Positions 2,460 to 30,168 of a stretch of DNA of 64,000 nucleotides are shown here, piece by piece; the first letter of the stretch is position 1, and each line of letters begins with the position of its first letter. A program made the position numbers and the translations under genes. The stretch lies in the NCBI RefSeq assembly GCF_000143415.4, contig NW_003314285.1, forward strand, positions 145,102 to 209,101, written 5' to 3'. The DNA comes from Selaginella moellendorffii (Eukaryota > Plantae > Lycopodiophyta). The notes beneath the pieces were generated by a model. That model was not told the origin of the DNA, did not search any database, and saw only the letters and a program-made list of their open reading frames with translations.

Positions 2460-2470
2460 TGGTATCAGAG
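2460..2470 (+). promoter_or_regulatory. Primer-binding site (tRNA-iMet) of LTR element A
   Basis: TGGTATCAGAG immediately after the LTR end. Confidence 0.75.
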
Positions 2471-3794: not shown

Positions 3795-4479
3795 CCTATG
3801 TGAAGTTGTTAGTAAGAGAAAGTTGGTTGAGTTTTGAAAGTTTGCATTCCTGGACTAAGAGTCATTCTTTCTATAAGACGAAAAATTTTCTACGAATTTT
3901 CTTAGGCTTTTACAATGGCTGATTTATCAGTCACTTTGCTCAAAAACCATTTTGTTTTCATAAGCCAGTAAAAAATAGTGAAGGGGTTAGAGTTGACTTT
4001 AGTTAATTTAGACTTTAGTAGGTATTTTGTATGATGTAGCCTGAAAGAGATGTTAACTTTTGAGGCTAAGGCAATTGAGTTGGATAAACTCTAGAGTTAG
4101 TGTAGAAAAGTGGCTGTTGTGCTTTTCTAGAAAGGTGACCCTTGTGCTTTTCTTCTGCAGTGTTGTGCTTGGTGGCAAGTTGCATCTTGCATTGTTTTAT
4201 ACTCTATGAGAGTAGTGAGCTCTCACTGATCTTGACTTGGTCTTAATGGCCCTGCACCTTGGTTGAGGATGGTGATGTCCAACCTAACCTCCGTAGAATA
4301 CATCTACGGATTTGACATCCCCACGGGGAGTTGGGGGTAGTTCCTTAGGCCTGGTCAACCTAGCTAACCTATGCTAATTAGCTTACCTTCGGTGCGCCTT
4401 CAAGTCCCAACATATGCCATCGCTCAACTTTACAAATGGATACTTTTAAATGAACTTTGCATAAGTACATAAAGTTCTA

Positions 4480-7400
4480 CCTTATAGAAATTTCTCCACT
4501 AGGTCTTGCACGTTCGCTAGGTTCTCCTTTGGTTCCCATGTTACTTCGTAGTGTGGAAATCCTTTCCACTTCATATGGAACTCTCTCACATCATGTCCTT
4601 GTCGCTTGCTCTTGCACACATTGAGGATGGCCTTAACTTCATATTCCTCTTCCCCTTGGATAACCTCAAGTAAAGGTCTTATTTGGTCCTTGCGAAGTGG
4701 ATCTCAAAGTATGGCTTGAGTAAGTTCACATAGAACACTGGGTGCATCTTCCCCATCTCTCAAGGAAGTTGGAAACGGTAAGCCACTTTACCAATTCATG
4801 CCTCAATCTCATAAGGCCCCGCGAACCTGCTTAAGGAACTCAAGATCAATTCATTTCCAGGAATACATGCATTTTTACCTTTGGGTCAACTTCCAGCTAA
4901 TCTCACTTGGTAGCCTGAGGTTCTTGGTGTTCAGCCACACTTTCTCCCCAACTTAGAACTCTACATCCCGGCGCTTCTAGTTTGTGTACTTGGTTTGCCT
5001 TTGTTGAGCCCATTCCAAGGAATCCCTTATTAAATTCCAAATGTTGAATCTTTCTGCCGTGAATGCCTCCACTGCAGGTAACTCTCTATGATACTTAGCC
5101 ACATTGTGTTCCACAGGACCTTCAATAGCTCGCCCATTGATGACTTCCCATGGACTCACCCTAATACTCGAGTGTGGTGAGTTGTTATAGCACATTTCCA
5201 CAAGTCCCAAATGACTTACCCAATCAGTCTAGTCTCTAGAGACATAGCATCACAAAAAATCCTCCAACTACCTATTCACCCTTTTTGTTTGTCCATCTGT
5301 CAAGAAGTGTTAGTGCCATCTAACTTGACTTAATACCCAATACCTGTCTGTGGGTGATACGCTGTGTTGAATTTCAACGTGGTGCGATATTGTTCTAGGA
5401 GAGTTCTCTAGAACCTACTGGTGAAGATCTTATCTCGATCTGAGATGATCTCCTCTAGCCTTCCCCACACTCGAACCACTTGTTCGAAGAACAGCTTCGC
5501 CACGCCTTCCGCATCCACTTCCGTTGTGGTGGGTATGAAATATGCCATCTTCGAAAATCAGTCCACCACCACGAATATCGCATCAAGCCCCTCGCTTGGG
5601 GGGAGTCCCGTGATGAAGTCCATCGTAAGACATTTCCACAGCTTATTTGGAATTACAAGCCCCCATTAGTATTAGTTACGGCTTTGACCTGTTGACATGT
5701 TGGACATGTCTTTACATAGTCTTGGACATCCTTAGCTATATCTGGCCAGTGATACTTCCTCTTGAGTAAGCCCATCATCTTGGGCACTCCGCCGTGTCTC
5801 GCAAGAGGTTTGTCATGACACTCTTCTAAGGCTACCTTCCTTAGTTCCCCTTCTAGAACACACACCCTCGTTTGTTTATAATAGATGAGTCTATTGCATT
5901 CTCCATAGTTTGTTTTCTCTTCTGTTAGTATTTCACCTCTTTGATGAGCTTCCCACGCCTCTAGATTCCTCAGCAACACTTCTTGTGCTAGACCATCATT
6001 CTCATATGCTATCTACATATTATCACAAAAGGTTGTTGTTGCACTGGATATTGTCAACTTCAAACTCGCTTTTCGACTTAGAGCATCCGCCACAATGTTG
6101 CTCTTCCCAAGATTGTACAAAATCTTGCAATCAAAAGCATTGGCCCACCAACCCTATTTCACTCTCAGGTCGGGTTGTGACAAAAAGTGTTTCTTTGCCA
6201 GATTGTCCGTGTAAACCTTGAAGTGTCTCCCAAGATAGTGTCTCCACTCCTTGAGTGCCTTGACCACCGCAAACAATTCTTTCTCGTGGGCAAGCCACTT
6301 CTGTTGAGCCTTGTCCAACTTCTTCAAGAAGAATGCCACTGGATGGTTGTCTTGCTTCAAAACTACGCCCAACGCAAAGTACGAAGCATCCATTTCTACC
6401 TCAAAGTCCTTACCAAAGTCGGGTAATGCCAACACGAGGGTCTTCCTCAACTTCCCTTTAAGGTGGACAAATGCCGCTTCGCATTCCGCTATCCATACCA
6501 TCTTCTTTTTACCCGTTTGGTCTATTAAGGGTAAAGCTACTCTCAAATAGTGTTTGATAAACTTTCAGTAGTAGTTGCATAGCCCCAAAAATGCCCTTAA
6601 CTCATATACATTCGATAGTTGCTCCTATTCCTAGATCTTTTGGACCTTCTCAGGGTCCACCTTGAGCCCATCCTTGTCTACAACATGCCTGAGAAACTTT
6701 ACCTCTTGTTGAGCAAAGTCACATTTGCTCTCTTTAGCATACAGCTTGTGTTCCCTTAGTTTGTCAAACACCTTCGTCAAGTGTTCGGCATGCTCCTTTA
6801 GCGTCTTGCTATAGATCAAGACATCGTCGATATAGACGACCACGAAGTGATCCAAATTGGGTACAAAGACGTGGTTCATCAGCGCCGAAAACATTGCCGG
6901 CGCATTACACAGCCCAAAGGGCATCATTAGAAACTCAAATCTCCCATACCTTGTTCGACAAGTTGTCTTCTCGACATCTTCCTCTGCTACCCTAATCTGG
7001 TAGTATCTTGACCTTAAGTCAATCCTCGAGAAATATTTTGCCCTTCCCATCCTATCGAACAGGTACTCAATCCTTGGCAAAGGGTACTTGTTTTTCTTTG
7101 TATACTTGTTAAGCAACCGCTAGTCTATGCACATGCGCATAGATCCATCTTTCTTTTTCAGAAATAACACCGGTGCCCCATATGGCGACTTGCTCAACAT
7201 AACATACCTTTTTTCCACTAACTCTTTTAGTTAGCACTTAAGTTCTTTGAGTTCTTTTTCGTTCAAACGATAAGATGGACAAACCACTGCATTAGCACCC
7301 TCGACCATCTCAATCTTATGTCCTATCGATTGTGCGGGGGGTAACCCCGCCGGTAGCTCCTCTGGCATGGTATCCTAGAATTGGTCCAACACCCGCTAGA

Positions 7401-9177
7401 TCACTAAAGGTACTTCTTCCGTTCCCATCTTTTTGTCACTCTTCACCAAGAGTAAGCACAAAAATGTTGCCTTGTTTCCTTTAGTGAGTTGTCCTCTTGT
7501 GGACACTAGGTTTAAGCAGGAGTCTTTGGCCTTACATTTCCCTACCTTTAGATCCTAAGCCTCCACCTTAGATCGTTCTCCCCATGCATTCGCCAGTACC
7601 ATGAGATTCCTCCCTTGTCCATGTAAGGCTACTATGAACCAATTGAAACAATCATCCCGAAGATTATGTCAAATCCCGCCATATCTAACAGGGTGAAATC
7701 CATGTTTACTTTCCATGTCCCTCCTTCGACTCTTGCTTGTCGAAGTATCTCATCGGTGCTTTGGCTACTTTGAACAAACTCTATCATCCTTGGTTCACCC
7801 AGCTGCTGCACCATTAGTGCAGCTTGCCGAACTATGTGTGCAGCCACAAAATTATACGAAGCACCTGTGTCAATAAGGATCTTAACAAAGCTACCTTTGA
7901 ACTTCCCTCGGAGAGTTAGTAGATGTCGCGAACGGCTCTTTACTAAAGTTGCTCATGTAATGAGTAACTTTGAGCTAGGGACTAGATCACATACCTCAAT
8001 TTGGATTTCACCCAACTTAATGGCCATATTGGCTTTGACCTTCTTCGGGTAGGGACATTCCCTCGAAAAGTGTCCTATTTCACCACAATTGTAGCATATG
8101 TTGTTTCGCACACTGCTACCAGACTTGACCTTCTTATCCACGAGTTTTGTCTCTTTTTGCTTGACTCCCCCACGTACTTGCTCACTGGCCACCGATTTTG
8201 CCTTTTCGGAACCCCAAGGACTCATTCTTAGAGAAACTCTTCTTGAATTTCCCTTTGCTATATGTTCCCCTTGGTTTGGCCCCTTTACTAAACATGGACC
8301 CTAACCCCGTTGTGTTCCCCTTTTACAAGTTATCATTAAAATGCACCTTGATGGCCACATCCAACATTTCCTTGTAGTTAGTTGGGTCGCCGCAAGCCCA
8401 AGTTTGCAAGCCTAATATAAAGGCATAGAACATATCCATATCACCCATATCCATGATAAGTATCCTCTTTGCCATAAACCCATTCACATACTCTTGAATG
8501 GTTCCAGTCTGCTTCAGCCTACTTAGCTCATCCCTTAGGTGCAGAGTAGCATTCGGAGGAATATAAGTCGCATGGATCCTCACCTTCATTTCCCAAATGG
8601 CCACCGGTCCTTCGTTGGCCTCAGTCGTTTTCCACCAAAACTTGGCATTATCTGCCAAGTATGGTTTTGCACATAGGACCTTCTTCGAGCTTGATAACCG
8701 CAACGCTCGGAAGTAATCCTCCATATCGTAAAACCAATCCTTCACCACTTTATAGTCATTCACTCCTTTGAAGACCGATGGGGGCTTTGGTTTATACTTG
8801 GGAACTGCCTGAGGAACTGATTCCACTTCGGTTTGCTCAACTTTGTTTGGTTCTGCCTCAGTCCTTGCCAAAAGATTCGCACCTTCTGTGTTGCCAACAT
8901 CCGCAGTCTTTCACCTTTTCTTCCGCTTCTCGTCAAGCTTTAACTTGCATATGAGAGTCTCCAGTAGGGCATTGGTCTATGCCAATTATCCTTCTAGAAC
9001 GTTCAATCGAGCCTTGAGTGGCCAAACCTCGCCACTGGACTCCTGTTTGGATGTTTCCTCGCATAAGTCCTCCTCATGCAAGGATTCCTCATCTATAGCT
9101 TCTTGTTCGACCGGAGGCTCCAGCTTTGGAAGAGGTTCCGTCTCTGCCTTGGTTTGTTTCTGCCCTGCCTTTACCAT
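4480..9177 (-). pseudogene. gag-pol polyprotein pseudogene (gag, PR, RT, RH, IN, chromodomain)
   Basis: ORF fragments show LNKYTKKNKYPLPRI, MPFGLCNAPA, VYIDD, DASYFALG and CPTCQ. Manual translation near 4512-4660 gives EEYEVKAIL...KWKGFPHYEVTWEPKENL (chromodomain). Confidence 0.92.
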
Positions 9178-9236
9178 CTCCCAGCAATCCGCCTCTATCC
9201 TTCGCTAGAACTGAGGAAAAGGCTCCCATACTAAAT

Positions 9237-10239
9237 TGTATGCCACAAATTTTTCCTTTCCAATTTGCCAGCTTACCTTGTCTATCCGACCAACACCACC
9301 TTGGCTTTAGCTAAATTCCCTCGCCAAGGTTCCTGCCTATTGTACTAGTTCCTACTTGGTCCTACTTGGTTTCAACTACTCACTGCATAAGCAACGGAAC
9401 ATTAGCCATCCATCCACAGAATCCTAAATCTCTCCCAATCCCCCTCCCCGGGTTATACTAGTCTTAAGGTTTGGCTACATTCCCCACAGGCACAAATAGC
9501 CAAGCACACCAAGCCTCTAGGTTTTTAACATCCCTTAATACAATAAAACTTGATCATGGGACCCTCTAAATCCCAAGCCTTGGGTGCAACACTTGCTTTG
9601 GGACACTGGGGTGAAACACCATGGCCTAACGGCCCGGTATGGGTACCTCTACTCCCCCATTTCCATCCCAAAGGGAAGGCCCAAGCCCTTAGGAAGGATG
9701 AGGACCAATGAGCCACAAGGTACTCAAGTGGGGCACCACTCCAACATGAGTCGGGAGCACCACAATTGGTTTCCCTTCCGGGAGTGGGAGCTGCTCTTGA
9801 GCACTTCCTTGGGTGGCCCCTTTGGCACCACCCGAGTCCATGCTCACTCCCACCCAAGGCCCCTCAGTCCCAGTCTCGACCTCAAGTCAATTTGGAAGCA
9901 CCACTGGACTCGGACTTGATCTCAGACTCGATCTTGGACCTGACTTCGGACTCAGTCTCAGACGCGATCTTGGACTCAATCTAGGACTTGATCTCGAACT
10001 TGACCTCGGATTCGGTCTCGGACTTGATCTCGGATCTCGGACTTTGTCTCGAACTCGGTCTCGAACTCGGTCTCGGAGTCAGTCTTGGACTCGATCCCAG
10101 ACTCTATCTCGAACTCAATCTTAGAGTCGGTCTTGGACTCGATCTAAGACTCGATCCCATCCAATGAACTCTTTATCATTTCGGTCGTGCTTTCAGAGAT
10201 CCTTTATCCTATAACACCTTAGGGAGTTGGTTCCTTACA
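9237..10239 (-). repeat. 5' LTR (family C) of the chromovirus element
   Basis: TGTA...TACA termini, near-identical to the solo LTR at 32065-33263 apart from a ~130-bp internal deletion. A degenerate Met-type PBS (TAGTATGGGAGCC on -) lies at ~9221-9233. Confidence 0.88.
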
Positions 10240-13200
10240 TTACACTTTAGTTTCGACTAAGTGTTGATCATGTATAGCTAGCCTCTTTAAGGCATACTCG
10301 GAGCTATAGGCTAAATGCATTAGTGAGTTTATTTCATTGAGTTGGATTCGAGTGGTCATTTAGTTTATGTTTGTCCATGAACCTTTATTTTGTACCTGGG
10401 GTATTACGTTCATATTGGTCAAGTATATGACTTGATGGCATGAGTTTAATATTGGGTCTTGTGAAGGCAAGTTGAAATAGTGATTGTTAGTTGCTTGCGA
10501 CTAGTGATTGCTTATAGACTTCGTCAAGGACTATTGACACTTGCTTCACTCGATAAAGATTTAGCAGTGATGGGCTTGCTTTACCGGATGGTGTTGCAAA
10601 AGATCGTGTTGTTAGACTTACATGGTTTTTCTATGTTGGCATATCGATTCTACCTTTTTTGATGTTATTTGGTTGCATTTAGTCCATGGTGTTGGATTTC
10701 ATGGAGTCTTAGAGATGGTGAATCACTTCTTAATGATGTGTTATCTGAAACTGAGTATTATTGGAGGATTAGTCTCGGATACTGATTAAAATATCTTTGA
10801 CATTAGTTAGCATGGTTGCTAAAGAGCTTTGGGTGGTGATTCACTCTTGCTTTCTTCTAGCTTTGTTCTGTTGTTGATGGCATTAAAATGATGTCTTGTC
10901 GTTGACCATATTGATGTTGAGATTTGAGTGAAATGAGATGTCTCTCCATAGAATTGATATTGAGTTTCATTAGTCTCGATGCAAATAGTGTTGATGCTTG
11001 AGCTGTAGCTTTATGTTATTGGCATTTGTGCATTTGCTAGTTAGCAACTATGTTGGTGTTCAAACAAGTTGAATAGCAAGTTTGAGTTAGTTGTGTTTTA
11101 AATGAGATTATTTAGTAGAGGTTGAGCTTTGGCTTTTCCTTGAAAAATGATTTAGTCGTGAACAACACTAACTTTACAAGTGGAAGAGTTAGTGATCGAT
11201 ATTAGAATGTTTGAATCCTTATTGGATTTGAGTTGAAATATATTGATCATTGATGATTTCTTTTGTACTTGTCATGAAGTGAATTATGTTTTGTTGTAGA
11301 TGGATTCATGGAGGGTTGTTTGGTGATCATTTGTTGAGCATAACTTCGATATGTTTAGCGTTTGGATTGATGCAGATATACTCTTCATTAGCTTTGCATT
11401 ATGAAATCTAGCTTATGGATGTATTGAAGGGGATATTATAAGTTGTGTCATGATTTCTTCTTTAACATTGAAGTTAGTTCATGCAAAATTTGTGATCATT
11501 ATTAGACAAGACTTGGTTATAGACTTTTTCTTGAGCTTTTGGTTCCTTAAGTTTTCATGTTTGTGGTCCATTTATTAGAAGTTGTTAGGGAAGGCATTTG
11601 GGCTTATTAGCTTCAATATTAAAGTTAGTGTTTGCATCTGGCAATCCTTGGTGATGATTGACTATCAACTAAGATAGTTGATTATCCTTATCAAAATTTT
11701 GTTTGATTATTGTTGGTCTAGAATGATTTGCCATTCTTCGGGATGGTAGATTCTTTCTTCGACAATGATTATGCATCTCTTTATTGATGGGATGATTAAT
11801 GATTTTTCATAATAGTTAGTTGTTCTCTTTGATGACTTATGGCTTTTTGCAACACCACATATTCTTTATGGTTTGCTCTAGATTGGTCTCTTGGGTTTGA
11901 GATATCGGTAGGATATATTGCTGACACTTGCTTAAACAATTTGAATTCCTTCATATTGTTGACCAGGATTTATTCAGATTAGCCAATGCGATAGTTAGCA
12001 TGAATGAGTGTTTGTTTGCTTTGAAATATTCATTCTATTCTCTTGACTATTGTTACAATTGCTTTGAAAGATTAGGATGTTATTTCCTTCAAGTAATACA
12101 TTCGCGAGCATTTTGTTTACTAGTCAATAATACTTTATGTTCTTTAAGTTATTTTTTGTAAGTTATTTGGCATTCTGTCTGCAATCTTTGATAGTTACAT
12201 TTTATCATTGAGTTTTCTTTATGATACACTTGCTATTGAATTTTGTTGGATAGTGAATCCTATGTTTTCCAATTATGATGATCTTGGTGGTTCCTGTGCT
12301 CTAATACTGGTTTATCGAATGATACCTTACTTGGAATAATTTTGTGTTCTAATCTAAGATTTATTAACTGATAATTAAGACTCTAAGATATCATTGTCTA
12401 TGACTTTTATATTGTCCATCTATTAATCTTTGGGTTTGGGCTAGTATAAGCAAACTAGCTTCCGCACTTCGTGTGCATAATGAAATCTTTAGTCATGGGG
12501 TAGCTATTGTAGACTGGTCATATCACCCGCCTTTCTGTCGATGTTCTTTATTCTGTTCAAAGGGCGTGACCGTGTAAACAACTCTAACTGCCTGTTTACA
12601 GTAGCTATCTAAACCTTACCAATAGGTTTAGTTTCTTTGCTTTAGAGGGTTGAGACCTTTGACTTTTCTCTCACTATGTCCCTGTGGGCAAGGGAGTATC
12701 ACATTTTTGTAAGCTAGGTGACTCCTAGAGCAGCAAGGGTGGCTAACTCTGTTGGTCATTTCCTTGTTGGCAACAGCCGGAAGGTATTTGAGTGGGTAGC
12801 GCATCCGCGTTATACAAAGAGGTTACTTTAACTCATTTAAGTTGGTGCACTTCTCACATAGTGTGCTCCCCGTGAACTTTTTTAAAGTTCTTTCCTTAGT
12901 AGTGGTCTAGAGTCGAGTATGCATCGATGAGGACATCGATCTTCCTTAAGAGGGGAGAGTGTCGCGAATGTGACTTTGGGTATTGAAAGCTACATGTCAG
13001 CCAATCCTTATGGACACTCTTTCCTTACTGCCACGATGGCAAGAGGTTCGTATTGCTAGACCCTTTATCAGCCCCTCTTATTCAAGTGTTAGTAAACTAA
13101 ACTTTGCATCTGTACTTGGCCGGATGAGCATAACGACAGAATTTCTAAGTGTCTATTCAACCAAGCATAATTGGCTTGGCTTTTTAGTTCTTTTTTGCTC

Positions 13201-14984: not shown

Positions 14985-15450
14985 CTCAAACTTGGATTCG
15001 GACTCGGACTCAAACTTGAGCTTGGGCTCGGTCTCAGCCTCAGCCTCGGTCTTAGTCTTGGTCTCGGTCTCGATCTCGGTCTCGGTCCCGATCTCAGTCT
15101 CGACTTTGGACTCCATCTCAGACTTCATCTTGGGTCCATCTCGGACTCCATCTTGGGTCCATCTCGGACTCCATCTCGGGTCCTTCTTAGACTCCATCTT
15201 GGATTCCATCTCGGACTCCATCTCAGTCCATCTCGGACTCCATCTCGGACTCCATCTCGGGTCCATCTCAGACTCCATCTCGGATTCCATCTTAGGTCTA
15301 TCTTGGACTCCATCTCAGGTCCATCTCGGACTCCATCTCGAACTCCATCTCGGTCCAACTCGGACTCCATCTCAGACTCCATCTGAGGTTCATCTCGGAC
15401 TCCATCTTGGACTCATCTTTGGTCCCATCTCGGGTCCATCTCGGACTCCA
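14985..15450. repeat. Tandem 6-mer/12-mer array (CTCGGT, CTCGGACTCCAT) inside LTR B1
   Basis: Visible periodicity; produces spurious SDSI/MESE ORFs. Confidence 0.9.
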
Positions 15451-16074
15451 CCATGTGTCATATGTTAGTCCTCTTGTGTCCCTTTTCTAGAGACTCTCTT
15501 ATTGCTCACTTCATGCTCGTTCCTTGAGCACTCTGTTGGGAGTTACATTCCCGCTTTTGACCTTTCAAGTTGGATGTAAGCGACTAAATTTTCCATTCTA
15601 CTTTAGTCACTTAACCACACCTTTGACCACTTGGAGGAGTCTCATTCACAACCTTCTTAAGTCCAATTCAGGACTTGGGACTTGCTAGCCCGAGGATGGC
15701 ATCCATGTCAGTCATCCCTTGCACTTAGTCCAAGTGCTCCATGTGTCTAGTCCCAAGACCGACACCCAAAGGTACCACTGACATATTGGCCCGTTACACT
15801 AAGGCCATGCCCATTCATCTTTGCCGCACTAGTGGTTCAATACCACTTGCATCACAATCCCATCTCTCCAACACTGGGCCATCCGTCCACGAGTGGTCAA
15901 CCCAGATCCACTCCTTAGCATCCTTAGAATGCCTACAGACATGGGGAATAGCCTTCCCCAATATCCCTTTGTCAGTTCCTACCAAGTCCCTTTTCTGTCC
16001 ATGGCCATGTTTGCTGACACCGCCACTAGATCAAGGCCCACAAGCCTGACCACTAAGTCCCATGGTCCTGTGAA

Positions 16075-16096
16075 GCTCTATTTTGTTAAAGTGGGA
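16075..16096 (+). repeat. Left subterminal inverted repeat
   Basis: 22 bp; 21/22 match to the reverse complement of 29129-29150. Confidence 0.92.
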
Positions 16097-16514
16097 ATTG
16101 TCATTATCCCACTTGTAAAATAAGGTTTCCAAACCTTTATATAGTATATAAATATAACAAAATTCAACTGCATTGAGGCACATGCCATTTTATTTTAAAC
16201 AAGGAAATGTCTACTCAATCACTTCTCCTCCCCCTGCCACTGCTTCACCTCTCTCTTCTCCTTGTCATCGTCGTCCAATTTCTTTCCATCCTTTTAATAT
16301 TGGCTCAGTTGCTCCGAGTCTAGGTGGAGCCCAAGTCCCCATTCAATCTTTACTTTCCCCTTATTAATAAAACAACTTCATAGACTTCCAATAACATGCT
16401 GTAACACTTCTAGTATAATGCAAATCCTCTCAAAGAATTGTCTTTTAATATTAATACAATGGCATGGAACCCCATGCCATAATAAGTTACATTTTTAAAT
16501 AAATACATGCCATC

Positions 16515-17375
16515 TCAGACTGTTATTTTTTGCCTCCAACGCCTATACAATAATCTTGGAATTTCATCACTCTCCACACTATCAGGATTTAAACCCAATA
16601 GTAATGCCATCTCTTCTCTAATACATCCACGCTCATGTTCAGTGGTCGAAGAACCCATCCGGTTGAGCAGATTATGGAGATGCAGATAGTGCTTGGCTAG
16701 ACAATATACATGCCATAAATGATGACTGGTGTCTGTTCGATCAAATAGCTTCTGATATACCGTTCCATCTGCCATTTGGTTGATTTCTGCAGCCACCTCC
16801 TGGACTGGCCGATTCTCTATCACCATCGCTCCAAGCCATTTTGCAAGGTCCCCCAGAACATACGGTTTCTTCTCCCTAGTTTCCATACTGCAAGATATGG
16901 GGTGCACTACATATGTGTGCATGTTCGCTGCAGTTTTAATCGGCGAGTCATCGATGATGAGGATTTCACTTGACCTAGCAGTCCGGTTCATCACTACAGC
17001 CTCTGGCTTGACGAAGATGGGCTTGCTACCCCTCACATGGACCATAGTCAAGCAATCCTCCTGCGTTAGGAGAAAGTCAAATGGTAATATTACTCACGTC
17101 TGATCGTGCATCATCTGTAGCAACGTTAATGCATTGTGGCGCATCATGGATGTCCAAACTCCCAATTGCAAATTGAACCCGGCCCTCTATTTTAAGTGTC
17201 GCATGGTCATTATTAGATCCCGCAGTTTCTCCCGTGTGATTAATGTGAATCTGTCTCTTTTGACCAACTTGCGACCGCAGGCTTTGGAGGGTGCAGTGAC
17301 ATTCAAGGACGAGCCACACTCATGGGAGAAAAGGACACCATTCAGATCAAAAACGATACAGTACCTTCGCCGTGA
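16515..17375 (-). pseudogene. FCP1/NIF-like HAD-superfamily phosphatase domain
   Basis: One frame, read through two stops: CIVFDLNGVLF ... LGVWTSMMRHNA ... FLLTQEDC ... KPIFVKP ... ILIIDDSPIK, i.e. HAD motifs I-IV of FCP1-homology proteins. Confidence 0.8.
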
Positions 17376-20300
17376 CTCTGAAATGAAATGCGTCAGCATA
17401 AAAAATGGTACAAGTCAATTTTACCATCTACAATATTAGCAAATGGTGCTCCCGATGGTTGTTGAGAGGGTTTTGGTCGAGGAAACGTGAAGGGCGGAAA
17501 TACTCTCCTCTGCAATGTGGGGTCAATCACATCCGATGGCGTGTGGGCACATGCCATTTCAGCTGTAGACTCTGGTACAACTGGCTCAACAGTGGCATGG
17601 GGTGGTTCCGATGGCGTGTGATCACACGCCATTTCAGCTGGTGCCTCCGTTGGCAAAGTGGACATGACCGAACAGGCAGCAGGGGCAGTGTAGGGAGGTT
17701 CCAACGGCGCGTAGTTAGACGATTGGGCACACGTTGAGTCCGTTGGAAATGAGGATACGACCGGCTCGGCGGCTGGGGCGGCCTCATGCGGGTCCAATGG
17801 CGCCTGGTCACCGTCAGTTGGATACGTGGACAAGATTGACTCAGTGGTATGGGCAGCATCAAGTGGAGCATGGTTAGCTTGCTTGGCGTTGATATGGATA
17901 GTAGCCTCCACCAGCTCTGATGACTCTTGCAGGCAAGTAGAGTCCACTGGCGGATCCATATGCATGTCCAAATATCTCCCTTCGATTGAGATGGTATCCT
18001 CCCTACTGGCTACTAAAAACAAACTCATTAGCACATTGAATCGACTATACTGTATTTACCATCAACTGCTATTGAGGAACTAGGACCGATATCACTTGGG
18101 CGCACTGCTGATTCTGAAGGATTGGACATACGTTTCAACCCTTGCTTGGCACTATCCTTCTTCGACACTAAAGGCTAGAGTTTGTATCTTAATTCAACTG
18201 AATAATCTCTACTTACCATTTGCTCTGCGACCTACATGGACAATGTTAGAAATGGTAAAATGTTAGGAATGGATGTACTATTATTTACCTGATGGTTTGT
18301 CTTGTATGACCTTCCTCCGCTGCTCTTTGGCCACCTCAGGCTGGCCATTGTCGTCATCATCGTCGTCGTCATTATTGTGATCGTCACCATTGTGAGGACC
18401 ATCCAAGTCCTCTTCGTCCTCCTCTTCTTCGTCCTCCTCTTCTTTGTCCTCCTCTTCGTCCTTCTGCTCTTCCTGCTCATTATCTTTCTCTGGCTCCTCA
18501 TCCCCCTCCTACATTTCTTCCATAGGCTGCTCAGGCTGGATGGCTTGTTCTTCCAGGACCATCTTGGGAAAGTCATCTGGCCGAGTCTCCATCTCAAAAT
18601 ACAAGACATCCATAGCCTGTTTTAGTGCGTGACCTAGGACCGTATCCTCACCCGACTGTCTTAACATGGTTCTGCACGTTCTTGCACCCTTCGAAGACGA
18701 CAAGATAAGAAAAACGTGGCCCTGACTTGAAAAGCATCCCTCATCCATTGTACCTCTCCATTGAGATTGGGGAAGGGGAGTCCGCCATAGGAATCTGAGT
18801 CAGGAGGTGGTGACTGGCTGCTTTCACTCAGCCCTTGATCTGCAATGAATGGCATGAGCACACACGCCATAACCGCGAGGCATTACCTATCATCTTTTCG
18901 TTGCCCTTCTTCCTTTTCGAATCAAACGCCTCTAATCCCGACGACTGTCCAACGTGCTTTCGCTTTTTATGACCACTGTCAGTTTGAGCTTGGCTGGTGC
19001 TTGCCTGTTTTGCCTTTGAAGAAGTGTCTCCTGCAAGGAATGGCATGAGACCACACGCCATTGCAAATATAATTTATACCTCCTTTTTTCCTATTGCTTG
19101 TCTGTTTGTCCTTCTTCGACGCAACACCAGTGCGCTTTTCAGTCCTCGTGTCTGAATATTCACAACGATCTATAATCAAAATGGCGTGAGGCCTCACGTG
19201 ACCTTACCTTGTGCAGGTTGTGAGCTCGGACCAACATGGGTATCTTCAACAGTAGCTGTTAACACTGTTTCAGCATCTGGGGGTGGCCACGCTCCTGCAT
19301 ACAGAGCTTGTGAGATAACATTTAAACTTAAAGTGCGTACTCACCAGGTTCGTAGAGAAGATACTGTTTTTCTTTGGCAACTGTAATTATATGCTCCATT
19401 GAAGTCACCTCTTCAATGGAGTTTGTCACCGCAACACACGGGACACCCTTGAGTAGTGCGGCTCGAAAGAATAGTCCACCGCAGTTGTACTCGACAACGC
19501 ATTTGCCCTTGGAGTCAGAAGCAGGTGACCCACCCGCTATTGTGTTGAAGACCTAGCTGAGCATTTCCCATGCTGCACCTGGAGCTTTCTCTGGATTCGA
19601 AAGCTCCATAGCCGTCTTCAGTTCCTCAGGCACGGGTAAATTGACCTCCCTCAGATCAATTCGATCGGCCTTGTCGAACGAAGCTGGGAAGTCACTCCAG
19701 TCCCACTCTGCTACAGGACCAATAACAAGGGTGAGTGTGAAGATGCGGACATTTGTCGGTATCTTCTTCTTAGCCATTATCCCATGGATCTCCCGCATCT
19801 CCTTGCCTTTCAACCGAGCCTTCACCTCGTTCAAGGCCTTCTAAAACTTGTGATAGGATTCAGAGTCGTAGATCATATAGTGGACTAAAGATTCCACCTC
19901 CGCAAGTCCCACCATTAAGTCAATGATGGAGCTGACTTCGTCTGCATGAGTGATCTCCTCGTTTGTGAAGTCCATCACACAAAAGATGTTCTTGACCTGC
20001 TCATCTCCGCGGGAAATGATGCTTCTCCACCTTTGATCCTCATCCGAATTCACGTATACCTGGTAAGGTTCTCGATAGGCCTCTGCTGTGGGGTCGAGTT
20101 GTTTCTGAAGCCGGCGGTCGACATCTCTCTTAATGAAATTTGGATACTGATCCAACTTCTCAGCTTTACTTTTCGTGGCATCCCGCAGTAGATTGATGAA
20201 CTTGGGGGCCCCCTTCACGTACTCGTCGATGTCTTCATTTGACAACTCCAGCTCTTCCATCATCTCTTGCGTAGTGTCGATGCTCACCCTCTCCACGGCC

Positions 20301-20849
20301 ACTTGCTCGAAGATCCAATCCTTCAATAGCGCACGAGCTCTCAGAGTTGTGCACAAGTCCTCGTATGTCACAATATGGCCGGGAGTCATTTTGGTCTTGT
20401 TGAAGACTACCTCACCACGTAGAAGAGCATTAGCCACTGTCAGAAGGTCGTCATCGTCTAGAGACCGCGAGAAACGCAAGGCGTTGAGCTTCAAATCATT
20501 GGGCTTCCGGCCGTCCTCCACACCCATTGAGTTTAGCAACTCCCCGTCATGGTACCTCCTCAGCACATCTACCCATTTGTCAAAAACAACTTTTGTCGTG
20601 AGTAGAATGTTATGGATGCTGAGTGTGTCATTGACCCCCAGTGTTTTCGAGAGAAGACTCGAGAATTCCTGCAATGGAAATGGCGTGAGGCCACATGCTA
20701 TGCCACATGCAACGAGGCTTACCTGCCAGGCGCTAGTTGCTAGTGCACGTCCTTGTCCTGGTTTTTGTGGCTTCTTCAGTTGAACCTAGAGCTTCTGTGT
20801 TTGTGCCAATGTCTCGTGTAGACCCGATTTGTAGCATGTTTCTTGCTTG

Positions 20850-21245
20850 ACATTCTGTGCATGGGAGATGTATATGATAGATCGGAGGGGCGAGTTGCCT
20901 TTTATCAGGCGGACAACTCTTGTCTTGAAGACTTTCTTCAGCTCCTCGCCCACCATAATATCCACAACTATCTCTTGCATCACCAAGCTAGAATGCTGCC
21001 CGGAGATGGCATAGAACCGGATGTTCTGATCGTCCAACACCTTCCTATTGATCAAGTCTGGAAACCTCGTCTTGCCCTTCATTGTTCGGTAGTAGGGGAT
21101 CACGTCTGCGATGTCGGGTGTTACTAGACTTGCCAGCATCTTCTGCTTCAGTTTCTCCACCCACTCATCAGATACTAGCCTGTGGTTGTATTTGCTTTGG
21201 ATGTCGATACGGCTCACGTCGATTGTATATACTTTGTTGGAATAG
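20850..21245 (-). other. ParB/Srx N-terminal-like domain
   Basis: VYTIDVSRIDI..YNHRLVSDEWVEKLKQKM ... FYAISGQHSSLVMQEI follows the ParB-N pattern (I.i..I, R....l..L, y.ii.GxHR). Recognised by eye. Confidence 0.6.
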
Positions 21246-24200
21246 TAACAAGTACTATTATCTGCGACGATTTTTGCTGCCTCTTCTTGCTCTTTCTGCT
21301 CTTTGCGGCTCTTCTTTTTGGTGGGTGTAGTGTTCGAACCCGAGGCAATGGCATCACCAAGTAGCTTCTTTTTTGGAGTAGGAGAGTCGGACGTCAGCTT
21401 GAGCTTGACCACCCTTTTCTGCTTCGGGGTAGTTTCCAGATCGACCCCCTTCCCCTTCGCTTCGCGAACTGGAGGCACTCTCAACGGCTCAATGTTGGAA
21501 TATAGTTTTTGAACATCGCCGTAGGTGAGGTCCGTGGATTCCATGTGATCTTCATAGACCCGCAGCGTCTTTGAAATTGTGGGCCTCTTGGACAACCTCT
21601 CCCTAGCTCCCTCTAGGAATTCCTCATAGCCGCTGCCCCCCTCCGGGAAGCCGCTAGGATGTGCAAGGTGGATCTTGAAGGCGAACGCTGTCTCTACCAC
21701 AAGTGCCAGTCCATATTCTTGCATGGAACTGCATGGAGTGTCTGTCACTTGGATGAGGATCCCCATGCATTCTTTTCTCCCACCATCTGTGTTGTACAGC
21801 CTTAGATCCTCGCCTTCCATCCCAAAGTTCCAACTAGTGAGCTCCTCCCCCTTCTCTGCATCCATATTGACAGTGGCTGGAAGAAGAACGCAATTCCTCG
21901 CCTGTTCAGAAATGCACAACAATTAGAGCTGACAGATGAAAAACTAGCAGCTGGAAATAACGTGAGGCCATACGCTATTCACCACTGCATCAGATGTCTT
22001 GAGGCTGCATCCTAAGATGGCGTGAGGCTACATGCCATCTGTAACCGGACTGCACTCGAGAGCCCAATCGGTGCATGCCAATGTTGCTACTGAATGGCAT
22101 GTGGCCTCATGCCATTTTCTACTTGGCCTAAAAGACTTACCATTTGAAGCCAAATGGAGGCGTGACAATCGAGGCCGGACTCACTGGCGAATGTGCACTG
22201 TGTGTGCAGCGGATCGTAGCAGCAAGGCTACTCTGCCACTTACAGTTGGAGAGTGGTGCTGAAATCTCCCGGGATGCCAAGTGGGCTGCGTGTGGGTGGC
22301 AGAGTGGGCGGCAAAGTTGGCGGTGAAGTTACAAACTGGGTGTGTCTTGAAGTGGACACCGATGCACACGAGCGCGATGCGAGCGCGAGTGTGATGCAAG
22401 CGCGAGTGGACGCCGATGCACACGAGAAACCTGTAGAGAAGGTAGATGAGCGCGAATGTGAGCGTGATCGCGAGTGGGAGCGCGATGCGAGCGCGAGTAC
22501 GAAGCAAAATGCAAAACCTAACCTCACACGTGCGAAATGTCACGACGGTTGGTAATCCCGCAACGTCATCATTCCTCGGACTTGGGCGCCACCATTAATT
22601 TCTGGATCGCCGCGCGCATGCATGCACGTGAAATCCAAAAGAAATCCGCAACGTCATCATTCCTCGGACTGCATGCACGCGAAATCCAAAAGAAAGATCA
22701 TGATTGGGATATCATTTAATACCCTCGCTATATTTATACCATGCATGATTGGATATTCCAAAGCATCTTGTATTTCCAAAAATGCCAGATGTTCAAGTAA
22801 ATAAAGAATGGTATACAATGTCCTTCTTGATGACCCTGCAAAGAAGCATCTCGATCGGACACCACATGAGACCACACAAGCCTTACAATGTTTCAGGGGC
22901 ATTTGCCATAGATCCGACCGTTATTTTGCTCCAAGATTCTACAGTTTGGTGTGCATTGACCTTTCCATTGACACTGCAAAGGGACATCACAATCAGATGC
23001 GGGATCACAAGAAACCAACTTCACTAACTCTGGTTTCACGAAGATCTACGTAAAAAGTTATGAAATGAAAGGACCCTCTCTATTGAAATGTGTTTATGGT
23101 CCTAGGGGCATTGTGATATATCAAAGGATTTTGCATCAAGTTCTGTATTTGCATGTTTATCAAGCTACTGAATTGCTAAACCCTAAACCCTAAACATGTG
23201 GCAAATGCTGCGTGAAGAAAGATGCCCTTTCTGGGCAAATGCTGTAAGAGGCAGATGCCGAGCAGATGTATCTCAGGCTAGCGAAGGGGACAAACGAAAG
23301 CTAGCTATAAACATGACGGGATGCAAATAGATTACTAGGCTAGTCCTACGAAAATCAAAAACCATAATTGAAAACATTGAAAATGCAAAAAGAAAGGTTT
23401 ATAATATTTTTTAATTTTAATCAACCAAAGGAATGTAAGTAGGGCATGTGTTTGTAAGTTTAAAAATGCCTCAACCACTTAAATTCCCAAGTAAATAAAG
23501 CTGTTTCTATTTTTGGTACAGGTAAACTTTATAGCGTGTGGGCTCATGCAATTTTGAACCCAAAAATGCACCAAAAAATGCTCGACTAGCATTATTCTTT
23601 GAATGGCATGTGGCTTTATATTGCCATAAATGGACGTACACACACAGCATAACTATTCCTTTACACGGCGAATAATCTTGGCGCGGATCGCTGACATGGC
23701 ATGGCAAAGTTCGAATCACTGACATGGCACAGCTGGATCAAGGCAAGGACATGATGTGACAAAGTTCAACCTCCGACAGCAAAGTCTAGAAGCTACTCAG
23801 TTTGAAATTTGTCAGAGGAATCATAAGATCTGGTTTGTCAGAGGATTTGATGTGACGTTCAAGCATGTGTTATTTTTGAATTCTCGAACTCATTCCTAGG
23901 TCTATCATTTTTGTGCGCCGTGTTCTTGGTTCCGCTGAGCGCAATGAGCACTGCTTGTGTAAGCGGCGTTGTGAGCTGTGGTTTATGCGTCTACGAGCGG
24001 TTGTGGCATTGCGAGCGCCATTGCGAGCGGCAATTTATGCGAGTGGCAATTTGTGCGAGCGGCGCTACGAGCAGTTGCGGTGTTGCAAGCGGCTCTACGA
24101 GTAGTTGCGGTGTTGCAAGCGGCACTGTCTTTGGTGTGGCTACCGCTTCCTCTTGATATTCGGCACTTGTGCTTCCTGGTATGTTCACCATGGAATGGCT

Positions 24201-24315
24201 TAGGACCACATTTAGAAATGGCATTAGGCCACATGCCATCTTGGGCCCTTGCAATTTCATGGCTAGCGTATTGTCATGTATGTTTTTACTTGCCTGCAGC
24301 TGTGTGTATATCAAG

Positions 24316-24507
24316 ATGGCATGAGGCCTTATGCCATCTTTGGCCCCTGCTAGCCTATTGCCATATTCCTTTTGCCTTGCTGCAACTATATATATTTTTG
24401 TATGGGTGACTAGTCACGCACACAAAAATATATACAGTTGCAGCAAGGTAAAAGGAATATAGCAACAGGCTAGCAGGGGCCAAAGATAGCATGAGGCTTC
24501 ATGCCAT
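24316..24507. repeat. 192-bp near-perfect loopless palindrome upstream of the transposase
   Basis: Two 96-bp arms centred on GTGACT|AGTCAC (24406-24417), with only scattered mismatches. Confidence 0.92.
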
Positions 24508-24695
24508 TAGTGGTACCACTAATGGCATCAGGGCTCATGCCAATTTTGTGAATGCGAAATTTCACGTGGGTGTCAATAGCATGTTTGAATAATGGCATGT
24601 GGCCTCATGCTATTGAGGTTGTTTGGTATGTTATGATTTAGGCCATTCTCCAATCATTTTTTGTATGGTCTTAACTTCTTTTCTGCACTTTCAGA

Positions 24696-27521
24696 ATGGC
24701 CTCCGCAAGTGCGACGCATGTTCCCTCCGTGGATCTTAAGAACCATGCTACATGGATTCAGGCAAAGGTGTTTCTAAACAACCCCGAGGGGGAGGTGGTA
24801 GCTGAGGGCTTAGCCACAGTTGTCGATCCAAGAGATGCGGTTGCTAATCAAGAATTGGGCTGGGATGATATTGGAATTGCGATTTTAGAGGTTGTTGACA
24901 CAGAAGAAAACAGTCTGACTATTGGAAGCATTGTGCGGTGGAAATTGAGGCACTTAGTGTTTGAGAATGTGAAGGATTCACAATCAAACACCACTACAAC
25001 TGATGACAGAACATCTCTTCATGGGAAAAGAAAGTACACCTTCCTAAAGCGCAGCCAAAGGGATCTGAGCAACAAACCGAAAAGGCAGAAAATGGCGATG
25101 GAGGTTCGAATGGTCTCGATAGTTGCTTATTGCAAGAGGAGGTGTTGTCAACATGCTGATTGGGATGCTATTGAAGAGGAGAGAGCAAGATACAAGACAT
25201 TGTCCTGGAAGGCAGCTCGCAATTTTGTGTATGAGGTATTACGGTCATCTGTTGATGCTTCAGAACATCAGGTGGGGGGCATGGTCTTCCAGAGGGGTTT
25301 GGTCTGCATGAAGGCATGGAGAATCATTTATGGAGTCCCTTGAACCACATTCTACAGAATCAAAATTGAGTTCGAGGAACAAAGGGTTCAATAGGCAGTC
25401 CATGGGAACGACGGTACTCACAAAACCAGGGGTCATGTTGTATATGGAGAGGCAATCTTCAAGAGGTTTGTCGAGACATGTAGTGAGCAGCAACCACATA
25501 AAACCCGCCTCTTGGAAGATGGAACTCGAGACACCCAACGAGTTCTCCCTTCCATGTATACCAAGGGGGCCATATTGGAAGATGTGAATCGGGAACTCCA
25601 GAGTAATGGCTACAGGAAGCTGAGACAATCTAGATTTAGTAGATTGTGGAGCAACAGATTCAGGGATGTGAGTATAGGAAAGTACTCCAGCTTTTCAAAG
25701 TGTGACGAGTGCACTGCTATCAAAATGTCTTTGTCGAAGAATTCTTGCATCGCTCAAGAGCGAGAGACGTTGGTTAGAAGGCGGCTCAACCACAACATCG
25801 AGCAGAGAAGCTGCAGGACTGTATATTATCATAACAGGATTCTCTCCATGGAGAGACCTGACTCTTACCTCTGCATCATCCACGACAAAATGGACCAAAA
25901 AAAGACGTGCTTACCTCGACTCAATCCTGCCCCCAAAGCAATCTCTTCATCCATGCAGCTGCCTGTGTCTCTGTTTGGCATAATCACTCATGGGCATGGT
26001 GCCTAGAACTATGGGAACTTCTTTGTACCTCTATGGGGTGGCGGGGGTGCAAACATGATGATTGCGTCCCTAGCAAAACACTTAAGGTCTCTGCAAAGTG
26101 CGCAAACTGAGCTGAACGGCCAACCCTTGCATAAGGCCCTTGTCGATCGAACCCCATACAGGGTTCAGCTGGAGGAGGAGCAAAGGCTTGCAGTATCGCG
26201 TGGGGCCCCATGCCATCCCAGTGAATATGTTGGCCGTCAGATTGTAGGGTTATCACGTGAGGCCTCATGCCATTCCGATGAGGCTGGTCGCCCGGTGAAT
26301 GCACAGCCTCATCCAAACGAAGCAGAATCTCAAGGAAGTTCTTGCGGCCGATGTGGCCTTCCACCCCATCTTCTGCTCCAAACAGAAAATGCTGGCAGTG
26401 AGAACAAAAACATGTACGTCTTCGCATACTTGGCGATGCTTGTTGCCAAAGGCATATTTGAAACGGTTACATTTGGCTTTCTCATGGTTGGGCACACTCA
26501 TGAAGACATCGATGCCATGTTCAGTCACCTGGCAGAGTCCCTCCGACAATCCAATGTCCTCACCCTCCCACAACTCTACGATGAATTCCAAAATTGCATC
26601 AAAGGCACTGTTGAAGCTGCACTTGTGACAGAGGTTCCAGACTTTAAGGGGTTTGTAAGAGGCTACATCAGGGACGGATCCGAAACGCTGATTGGCCACT
26701 CCAAGCCTCTTCAGTTTCATTTCAGCATGCGTGACGGTGCTCCAGTGATGAGGTACAAGATGAGAGAATGGGACACAGTGTGGCTGCCAGTGGACGGCAT
26801 TGAACTCTTCAAGAGAGATCCCATAACTAGGGAACCTATGATTCCTCAGGCTTCCCCACGACCGATACACCCGGATGGACTCAAAGACCAGGAAAGTATA
26901 GTGGCCGGGATTAGACAGCATATTGCCTTCTGGAAGAGGGGGTTGGTGTTTGGTGGAGAATCCTATTTTTAGAGGTGCAAGCCTTTGCTCGAATATTGGG
27001 AGAAGATTATATCTGCTATCCAAAATGGGCCGGTTGTATATGAAGAATTGGAAGAGTCCTTTTGGCCAGAACCCAGAGCACCAGATAGTAGCGGAACAAT
27101 GTCCTCTGGAAATGTAGTGACAGATAACGATGTTGAGGATCACTATTGTGGGCCGAGGAACAAGAAGCCGAATTCAGCATTCAATCCAGTACAGGTCTGC
27201 AAAGGAATGGTCGTGCTTGTCAGACCCAGTAATAAAAAACAAATGATATAGGTGGGGCGCTGCATCACTGATGCAGAGGAGGACGCGGAAACTAACTCCT
27301 TCAATGTAACTGTGGAGTGGTTCAAGCCAAGTTCCGGATATACGAAGGATTGCCTAGAAAAGAGATGGGTGCTGAATCCAAGGGATCCCAGCATGAGCAT
27401 ATCGGTGGATAATGTTGTGCATGGTTGGATGCGGAAGCAGAGTGCCACCATCACCTTGCCAGACCATGCAAGAGATGCAGCAAGAGCATTCATAACCCGG
27501 GTTCAAGGTGAGATTCATTAA
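24696..27521 (+). pseudogene. DDD/E-type transposase (Sola/DUF7869-like), ~940 codons, five in-frame stops
   Basis: ORFs at 24696, 25512, 26055, 26985 and 27252 are all in one frame, with stops at 25341, 25392, 26004, 26970 and 27249. Motifs: FSKCDEC, IIHDKMDQ, LQTENAGSENKN, FLMVGHTHEDIDAMFS. An acceptor TTTCAG sits just upstream of the ATG. The superfamily assignment is tentative. Confidence 0.8.
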
Positions 27522-29128
27522 TATTCCTTTACTAAATTTCTAATGTATTTTATTTCAAGGTGAACAATCCGAATCTGAATCAGAGGAGGCGTGATGGCAT
27601 GTGGCCTTACGCCATTCTTAGGTGAGATGATACAAATAACAAGTATAAATTCTTAGTTGTTCTAGCAAATCTTACTTAAAGTTCAAGGTGAACAAGCCGA
27701 ATATGAATTCATCGGATTGTTATAACAAATTGCGAGGTGATGGCATGAGGCGATACGCCATTTGAGAGTGGTAGCCATTCCTATATGAGGTGAGTGAAAT
27801 ATTTATTAGAAATACCTCATTCAATTGTGCACTTCTAAATCTTGGTCCACTCAGTACTGTTTGCATGTTTTTATTTTAATTCTTTCTCTAAAATGTTATT
27901 TAGCATGTGGCTTCATGCCATTGCTCTCCACAATCATGCATTGAATTTTTCTATCCTTGCATAATACTTCTCCATATATATAGCATGTGCGCACATGTGA
28001 TATGGTTCATTAGGCCTGATATAGTGTGTGAGGTAAAACAAAGATGATGTGACATATGCATTTACCAATCACACGTGTATAAATCTAATAATATGGCGTG
28101 TGGCCCATATTAATGGCACATAAACCCATATTGTGGGCTTACGTGCTTTATGTACCATCATTCCCTTGCAGCGTGTGTGTTGGTTTCCTTTTATAACACA
28201 ACAAACTCCATATTTTAGGGTGAAGAGCGTTCTCATGGCAAGCACAAAATCTGTAAGTGAGGCAGATAAGGAGACGAAGAAGGAGATAGGTGAAGATCTA
28301 GAATATATAAGTCTTCCAAACTCCCCGTACTATACTCCAGGTGATCATTTTTCTGAACAAACAGCAACATTAACAACTATCGAGAACGCCCCAGTAACGT
28401 CAGAGACAACAATCCAAAGCAAAACAACTGACCCGGAGAAGGATGATAGTACCGCTGAGAGTACCAAAAAGGAGGTGTCCACTAGCGCTTAGGCTTATAA
28501 TGGCGTGTGCCCTCATGCCATTTACTTGATCACCAAATACCTTTTTCCCTTTGCACTAGTATATCTTAATACCGGTCTGAGAAATAGAATGGCATGTGCC
28601 CTCAGGCCTTTTACTAAATCACCTTTGAAAGAAATGCAAGCCTCTATGTCGTAAAAAAAAGGTACTAGAGAAATTCCTTAATAATATGAATGTTATTTAG
28701 TTTCATGAAAATACACTAAGGGTCAAATGAGTTAAATGACTTCTCCAGACTAGCAATGCCTCTTGCTACACCTTCACAATTAGATTTGTTAGAAAAAGAT
28801 AACATTGAATAATATCTAAATGTTCTCACCATTAAGTTATATGTCTGGCTAATAGGAATGACGTTCATCTTGGAAAGCTCACCACACGCTCAATGAACAA
28901 ACAAATAGTGTGTGCGCGCATGCCATCGCTCTTCTTTAGCTTCAGATTCGGCTTGTTCACCTTGACAATGAGATTTATTATACAACCAGATGGACTCAGT
29001 CTGGACACAAAGTCACCGCGCTAGTCACCATGCCCCAGATATATCTAGCTCCTGGACAAAAAACATATAATTTCACGTCATTTTCAAATACTTGAAAATT
29101 TGTACCTAGTCCCATTTTACTGAATAAA

Positions 29129-29150
29129 TCCCACTTTAACGAAATAGAGC
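29129..29150 (-). repeat. Right subterminal inverted repeat
   Basis: TCCCACTTTAACGAAATAGAGC. Confidence 0.92.
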
Positions 29151-29656
29151 ATTCTGGGACTTCCTCACCATGTGACTATATCCTTAGTCACTACACTAGA
29201 GGACCGCTCCTCCTCCTTTCCCTCATTTGGGACTCCGGGACAACATTTTGGAATACCGTGGGCCTACGCGAGCCCCGTGGGTACTCTCCCCACCTTTCGC
29301 CTTTAGGTGCTCTAGCCATGGGCTTAGAGCGAGGTTCTGTTGAGCCACGCCTGGTATCTAAGTAGGTAGTGCCACCCACACTTGGACTGGGAGCATCGGC
29401 CAGTCGATCTCCCGGGGGAACTAGAGCCGGCTCTTGAATACTTCACCAAGCTACCCCACTTGTCAGTCCGTATTCACTCTAGTCTTGGACTTCCCAGTGG
29501 TCAGTTCATCACCCAACATTGGGTCTGGCCTTCCTGGGCCAAACTAGCCTTTCCTGGCCAAACTGGCTCCACTGCAGTCCTCCCCCTTACTATACTTTTG
29601 GAGCTCACCAAACCCCCCAGGGTCTGGGAGACGGACGCTTTGGGCTTTCACCCTCT

Positions 29657-29750
29657 CAGACTCAAACTCGGACTCGGACTCGGACTTGGACTCAAACTCG
29701 GACTCAGACTCGGACTCGGGCTCGGGCTTGGGCTAGGTCTCGGCCTTGGC

Positions 29751-29789
<39 letters not shown>

Positions 29790-30168
29790 AGTCTTGGTCT
29801 CGGTCTCGGTCTCGATCCCGGTCTCGGTCTCAACCTCGGACTCCATCTTGGGTCCTTCTCGGACTCCATCTCAGGTCTATCTCAGACTCCATCTCGGGTC
29901 CATCTCGGACTCCATCTCGGACTCCATCTCAGGTCTATCTCAGACTCCATCTCGGTCCATCTCGGACTGCATCTCGGATTCCACCTCAGACTCCATCTCG
30001 GACTCCATCTCAGACTCCACCTCGGACTCCATCTCGGACTCCACCTCGGACTCCATCTCAGACTCCACCTCGGACTCCATCTCGGACTCCACCTCGGACT
30101 CCATCTCGGACTCCGTCTCAGTCCATCTCGGACTCCACTTTGGACTCCAACTCGGGTCCATCTTGGAC
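29657..30168. repeat. Tandem 6-mer/12-mer array in LTR B2
   Basis: (CTCGGT)n followed by (CTCGGACTCCAY)n. Confidence 0.92.

Follow-up and report, generated by a model that had tools for sequence, protein, structure and literature searches.

A dispersed 22-bp palindrome in a Selaginella moellendorffii DNA transposon: a likely protein-binding motif whose arm is a likely branch point in short predicted introns

Overall organization of the element

The window analysed here is the whole 64,000-nt stretch of the S. moellendorffii contig NW_003314285.1. It contains a DNA transposon of 13.1 kb (16070–29153, no strand assigned), which sits within another repeat and whose flanks rejoin to an empty site. 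Empty sites matching these flanks are found at 14437 in the window and in contig X1, and no target duplication was recognised at the insertion. The element is bordered by terminal inverted repeats at 16075–16099 (plus strand) and 29126–29150 (minus strand, 25 bp), with 23/25 positions matching between the two. Contigs X1 and X2 are ~98% identical to the element and differ from it mostly by A>G and T>C changes.

Open reading frames define two predicted genes, a transposase gene on the plus strand (24696–27521) and a cargo gene of 11 exons on the minus strand (16515–22143). The only Pfam match of the transposase is DUF7869 (PF25273, E 8.7e-39). A literature search returned no paper naming DUF7869, and an Atlas search with the transposase N-terminus gave no usable match. 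The window copy is decayed, with several in-frame stops, found in both genes, and one frameshift in the cargo gene. The transposase stretch 26100–26370, which holds two copies of the palindrome described below, seems longer than in the related loci L016 and L074 and may be an in-frame insert or an unrecognised intron.

Gypsy-like gag-pol remnants, and arrays of repeated 12-bp units within the host repeat that flanks the element, are present at 5653–8910 on the minus strand, 9909–10156, 15108–15450, 29655–30168, 31169–31550 and 32893–33144. Elsewhere in the window, three related open reading frames (37243–37755, 44664–45125 and 58953–59528) with hydrophobic N-termini and conserved cysteines lie in AT-rich islands.

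Predicted introns of the cargo gene

Ten introns are predicted in the cargo gene, all on the minus strand; five contain a 22-bp palindrome (239, 54, 38, 49 and 47 nt) and five do not (50, 57, 42, 47 and 47 nt). Four of the former had been described in the first-pass annotation, with the coordinates and lengths that we confirm here, namely intron A (18840–18886, 47 nt), intron B (19031–19079, 49 nt), intron C (19170–19207, 38 nt) and intron D (20669–20722, 54 nt). Each starts with GT, ends with AG and contains one motif copy with 1–3 mismatches to ATGGCRTGWGGCCWCAYGCCAT, ending 9, 9, 11 and 11 nt from the 3' end, respectively; the phases also agree, A to C being phase 1 and D phase 0. The same annotation left out the 239-nt first intron (21902–22140), with motifs at 21957, 22017 and 22094, as well as the five motif-free introns of 42–57 nt. 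These are E (19295–19344, 50 nt, phase 1), F (18232–18288, 57 nt), G (18175–18216, 42 nt), H (18013–18059, 47 nt) and I (17378–17424, 47 nt). Its description of introns A to D as ultra-short applies to the 38-nt intron, which alone falls below the range of predicted host introns in the window (n=23, 46–118 nt), while the others are ordinary against the host median of 56 nt. The host set comes from a simple parser, which gave 25 introns in three host genes, from which two doubtful ones (38501–38570 and 55636–55687) were dropped.

Retention of the 38-, 47- or 49-nt interval leads to a stop within 11–98 nt. The 54-nt interval is stop-free and in frame when retained, and therefore frame alone is no proof of the splicing of intron D. 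The RefSeq homologue P0011 aligns across it with an exact 18-residue gap, WQ|EF, and a folded model has a pLDDT under 50 at this stretch. The three exons that separate the phase-1 introns E, C, B and A (87, 90 and 144 nt) are all stop-free, with a chance of ~8e-5 before allowing for our own choice of splice sites. No spliced read or contig was present in 8/8 runs, so all cargo introns remain predicted. The reads of three raw-read RNA runs, sampled at ~12% of each, were limited to a low-complexity stretch, an rRNA-like 40-mer and a few places without splicing. Contigs X1, X11 and X12 are unspliced and X21 is an rRNA-like piece only; none of them bears on splicing.

Two further candidate introns were rejected. 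The frame change at ~18689–18753 is accounted for by an extra base at 18669 in the X1 and X2 contigs, and at ~17062–17098 the match to the NIF domain continues through in frame. Contig X12 (21743–22135) departs from the element at 22135 into unrelated sequence, which is not a splice junction and perhaps reflects an insertion in another copy. A 40-nt stretch lying upstream of the cargo start (22207–22246) also occurs in an RNA of very high abundance. It can be aligned with the 3' end of eukaryotic LSU rRNA (Rfam positions 3338–3373, E 0.23) and is possibly an rRNA fragment captured in the 5' UTR.

Distribution of the palindrome

At ≤5 mismatches, 25 copies of the palindrome are present in the window against 0–1 in each of 10 shuffles. 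All of them lie within 16459–28926, inside the element, and none elsewhere in the window. Seven copies are intronic, four are in open frames and 14 are intergenic or downstream. The four in open frames are two in a cargo exon (17532–17640, minus strand), within a 75-bp duplication, and two in the transposase frame (26195–26273, plus strand). Six copies are located between the genes (23531–24613), seven downstream of the transposase (27594–28926) and one downstream of the cargo gene (16459–16480), with no strand assigned to these three groups. Sequence beyond the motif copies is mostly unrelated, while the inner motif positions are near invariant. Our literature search, with most subscription papers and Repbase outside its reach, gave no description of this motif.

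The distribution is strongly biased. Seven of the nine motifs in the cargo gene fall in the 12% of the gene that is predicted intron (P ~1e-5), and only 4/25 motifs fall in coding sequence, which makes up 59% of the element (avoidance P ~1e-5). The first-pass annotation had suggested that binding sites are parked in introns. Both biases support the parking of the motif, and the binding itself enters below as a likely interpretation.

Two of the intergenic copies sit at either end of an inverted repeat (24316–24507) with 96-bp arms (91% identical). This repeat is a possible small-RNA source or cruciform; all of its Rfam miRNA matches were below the gathering score.

Branch-point overlap and origin of the short introns

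The branch consensus YTNAY is a loose pattern. In introns A to D, its sole occurrence at least 12 nt from the intron end is the 3' arm of the motif, CTCAY, with the A at −16 (CTCAT, introns A and B) or −18 (CTCAC, introns C and D). A match at −15 to −17 is also present in 4/5 motif-free introns (CTCAC at −17 in E, CTAAC at −15 in F, CTAAT at −16 in H and CTGAC at −16 in I), and the first intron has a match of its own, CTAAT at −22. Among predicted host introns, only 6/23 have YTNAY at −13 to −20. The transcript-sense arm fits YTNAY in 4/4 short introns against 8/21 other copies (P 0.04), and the spacing of motif and acceptor in the four introns gives P 0.007–0.01; both values overstate the case because the four introns share a cassette, as described next, and are not independent. 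The 3' arm is thus a likely branch point in the four short introns, and such use of CTCAY would fix the motif at 9–11 nt from the acceptor.

The last 31 nt of introns A and B are 90% identical (E 1.4e-5). Over the last 9 nt, A–B and A–D match at 8/9 positions, a level reached by 0.3% of background pairs, and the 3' ends of A–B, A–D and B–D are all alike above background. The 31-nt identity together with the alike 3' ends of A, B and D suggests that motif and acceptor were probably propagated together, as a single cassette.

It is possible, though we hold it only tentatively, that introns A, B and perhaps C themselves arose within the element when a unit combining motif, branch point and acceptor was copied, be it through duplication, conversion or intron transposition. 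The motif would then have helped to create splice sites in a fast-evolving linker. Besides the similar 3' ends, the 5' ends of A and D rank in the top 4%, and two of the linker exons, all of which are phase-1 symmetric, have a 12-mer in common; VANC genes, according to the accessible text of PMC5735166, likewise differ in exon-intron layout and contain tandem repeats. Against such an origin, 5/6 pairs of intron 5' ends are at background, including A–B and B–D, the X2 contig over 18458–22176 contains all four intervals with no joint listed, and the linker has no covering homologue, which leaves the gain undatable. Cassette-copying gain of the linker introns A to C is a possible addition to the interpretation proposed below, with which it can coexist.

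DNA site or RNA hairpin

Every motif copy folds into a stem that covers the branch match (intron MFE −7.5 to −16.2 kcal/mol), and the branch A would be buried in the 9-bp RNA stem at the motif (−5 to −10.5 kcal/mol). From this one could imagine a hairpin in the cargo transcript that modulates its splicing as a feedback switch, and regulation by a hairpin had been raised in the first-pass annotation. Arm covariation gives it no support. In two counts, variable arm positions are paired in 12/25 copies against 12.6 in shuffled arms, and in 10/25 against 10.3; the innermost pair alone is marginal (P 0.04 among 11 tests). The majority of copies lie outside the short introns, intron D has A–C mismatches on the sense strand and the outer stem of intron C is broken. 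We therefore consider the hairpin switch unlikely. Avoidance of coding sequence and arms without covariation suggest that the motif behaves as a DNA site rather than as an RNA hairpin. The centre GGCC is conserved too, and the arm pattern would be that of two half-sites read in duplex DNA rather than of a selected stem.

Related elements and the age of the introns

Single-protein homologue searches gave no match. A pattern scan of metagenomes yielded 119 loci, most of them encoding DUF7869-like proteins. An AT-rich group of 13 of these loci carries an 18-bp sister palindrome, ATYTRGTGGCCACYARAT, which shares just the core GWGGCCWC with the window motif and occurs both in arrays and as dispersed copies. 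At ≤3 mismatches it is present in 39 copies in L016, 2–7 copies in eight other loci and 0–1 copies in four, against 0–1 in shuffles. In an 82-residue tree, grouping of the window with the AT-rich loci was not firm.

L016 contains a near-complete 11.3-kb relative (533–11813) with terminal inverted repeats of ~26 bp, an ATAT duplication and apparently three NIF-like pieces. Its sister palindromes form 24-bp and ~50-bp tandem arrays at 5200–6480. Tandem arrays of different palindromes are present in other loci with the DUF7869 pattern (L002 at 4072–4660, L023 at 4976–7175 and L043 at 7965–9235).

Decay of the window copy and the presence of some motif copies in simple duplications would fit the idea that the copies have no function and are neutral leftovers of local duplication. 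However, the unrelated motif flanks, the near-invariant inner positions and the recurrence in distant relatives of a sister motif with the same core make this very improbable.

The 5' half of the transposase could be aligned in nine loci, and eight of them have one intron in the same place, its splice dinucleotides being decayed in several, while L031 is without this region. In L047 and L063 the intron is 291–292 nt long and contains two sister motifs; in the six other relatives it is 122–162 nt long and has no motif (best match with at least 8 mismatches). Since L047 and L063 form a clade (100% support) nested among motif-free lineages, the simplest explanation is that the motif was gained within an intron already present. 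Because the intronic motifs of L047 and L063 lie at 93 and 205 nt from the acceptor, coupling of the motif to splicing is not general.

For the cargo gene, six database open reading frames (cluster representatives) reach the column of intron D in frame. Five of them lose the alignment directly after W-K-V, as would happen if the frame ran on into a GT, and the sixth has W-K-I; open reading frames of the downstream exon begin just past this column. The junction therefore appears common to homologues at 23–30% identity, which argues for an old position of intron D.

For the introns that could be compared, these results contradict the suggestion that the motif seeds introner-like intron gain: the position of intron D is apparently old, and the transposase intron of relatives is motif-free in 6/8 loci, homologous introns without the motif being what the first-pass annotation itself had named as refuting evidence. 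The introns share with introners, as characterised in the accessible text of PMC9860276, their short length and a mutual similarity that reaches the 3' boundary in several of them; they also have an internal inverted repeat, and their similarity is partial. Judged by criteria taken from the same text, they differ in that the similarity does not extend to both ends in most pairs, that within the window they are confined to one gene and that no recent gain with empty sites is seen; no contig without the intron is listed at any of the intervals A to D. A true introner, in which the motif-bearing intron is the mobile unit inserting into genes, is already largely refuted and highly improbable, since in addition 18/25 motif copies lie outside introns and the motif is present in 0/23 predicted host introns of the window.

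Domains of the cargo protein and candidate binding proteins

The cargo protein (16515–21901, minus strand) is predicted to contain, in this order, a ParB/Srx fold, a helical domain, an amino-methyltransferase-like fold, an acidic linker and a NIF phosphatase-like domain. No Pfam family except NIF was matched by the cargo pieces; the match lies in the last exon (E 3.8e-5), and the divergent cargo of L016 matches NIF too. Atlas features of the cargo point to DUF3723-like clusters. The N-terminal half models as a ParB/Srx fold followed by the helical domain, with PadC, KorB, pNOB8 ParB and Noc as best matches. Structure matching (VIA) gave a Z of 9.7 for PadC (rmsd 3.1, 99 aligned) and 8.9 for pNOB8 ParB (rmsd 4.5, 198 aligned), and Foldseek matched the ParB-fold part to Noc (E 9.7e-4); the helical domain is aligned only loosely. 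ParB and Noc are CTPases with an arginine-rich CTP motif and an HTH DNA-binding domain. Where the arginine-rich motif stands, the cargo has ISGQHS, with a conserved GQH and two later arginines.

The methyltransferase-like domain weakly resembles beta-class amino-methyltransferases (Foldseek E 0.02–0.1), and the Riccia homologue gave a PF01555 match that does not reach the cutoff (E 0.0034). Beta-class N4C/N6A methyltransferases have the catalytic motif (D/S)PPY. No PPY was seen in the alignment of this domain, which is therefore probably inactive.

Named homologues of the cargo come from Selaginella, Calypogeia and Riccia, the best being a S. moellendorffii gene. The S. moellendorffii genes P0002 and P0011 consist of the helical and methyltransferase-like part only and may be domesticated.

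A ParB cargo was detected in none of the 119 related loci, including the near-complete L016, and none of the 51 pattern matches from a scan of metagenomes for the ParB domain became a confirmed locus. The lack of a detected ParB cargo in the 119 loci makes the transposase an equally good candidate, and the putative binder could be either the ParB-fold cargo protein or the transposase.

An element-wide recognition motif

Taken together, we think it rather probable that the palindrome is an element-wide DNA motif, likely bound by a dimeric element-encoded protein and collected in non-coding DNA, with its 3' arm as the likely branch point in the short introns. Motif copies would accumulate in non-coding DNA, predicted cargo introns included, where the CTCAY arm would double as branch point and hold the motif at its distance from the acceptor. 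Bound in this way, the motif might mark the element for activation or transposition, as the VANC and TnpA motifs do.

A bolder version, which we regard as doubtful, is a parS/ParB-like system in a eukaryotic transposon family. Here the ParB-fold cargo protein would bind the dispersed palindromes and mark the whole element, and its sites would be built into cassettes of branch point and acceptor. The same 22 bases would recruit the protein on DNA and steer the splicing of the transcript that encodes it, while cassette copying would give rise to new short introns.

In flowering plants, VANDAL, Spm and Mutator elements are described examples of transposons with sequence-specific self-recognition. 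If our interpretation is true, such recognition would extend to non-seed plants and to another superfamily, in which the palindrome is long, with a core that recurs in distant relatives, and the candidate binder has a ParB fold. The element would also be a small case, amenable to testing, in which a single sequence acts both as DNA site and as branch point, and would show how a very compact gene could fit cis sites into introns of 38–54 nt. The proposed dual use of the motif as a branch point and the ParB-fold candidate binder appear to be new and testable; the finding is no evidence for a new introner.

Comparison with known systems

The element is probably Sola-like. Sola1 elements also have short terminal inverted repeats, exceed 10 kb and occur in non-seed plants; a palindrome or cargo is unmentioned in the accessible text of both sources (PMC10741241, PMC9033089). 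The terminal inverted repeats here are 25 bp in the window and ~26 bp in L016, and the 4-bp ATAT duplication is present in L016 and not at the window insertion.

Bacterial ParB and Noc act on parS/NBS palindromes. The cargo resembles them in the predicted order of a ParB/Srx fold and then a helical domain, and the sites resemble theirs in being dispersed palindromes of similar length on the same replicon. In contrast to ParB and Noc, the modelled cargo carries ISGQHS where these proteins have the arginine-rich CTP motif, and it is fused to methyltransferase-like and NIF domains. Methylases fused to a ParB-HTH are listed in algae and chytrids in PMC4738411, the accessible text of which does not mention Selaginella.

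In Spm/CACTA elements, TnpA binds the termini at 8–10-bp motifs, and a transposase alone is reported to be able to activate cognate copies (bioRxiv 10.64898/2026.08.24.746577, accessible text), which supports the transposase as the rival binder. The clustering of family-specific motifs, there bound by an element protein, is shared with the present element, whose motif is longer, palindromic and spread through gene interiors.

VANDAL elements are Mutator-like. In Arabidopsis, the motifs bound by VANC21, one of the VANC anti-silencing proteins, are located in introns and in further non-coding parts of VANDAL21 (PMC5735166, accessible text), with which the parking of the palindrome fits well. There, too, the DNA transposon is large and has an accessory gene, its family-specific motif is concentrated in introns and in intergenic and terminal non-coding DNA, and motifs were gained between subfamilies, often as tandem arrays, which in the present family are seen in L016; the same text mentions no overlap of motifs with branch points. 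However, VANDAL motifs are 9 nt long and non-palindromic (PMC5735166), in contrast to a 22-bp palindrome together with a DUF7869 transposase and a ParB-fold cargo. The non-coding enrichment of the motif, introns included, is thus found here, and a Mutator-like transposase and a VANC-family protein are not. By analogy, the element would work like VANDAL/VANC and Spm/TnpA while belonging to neither.
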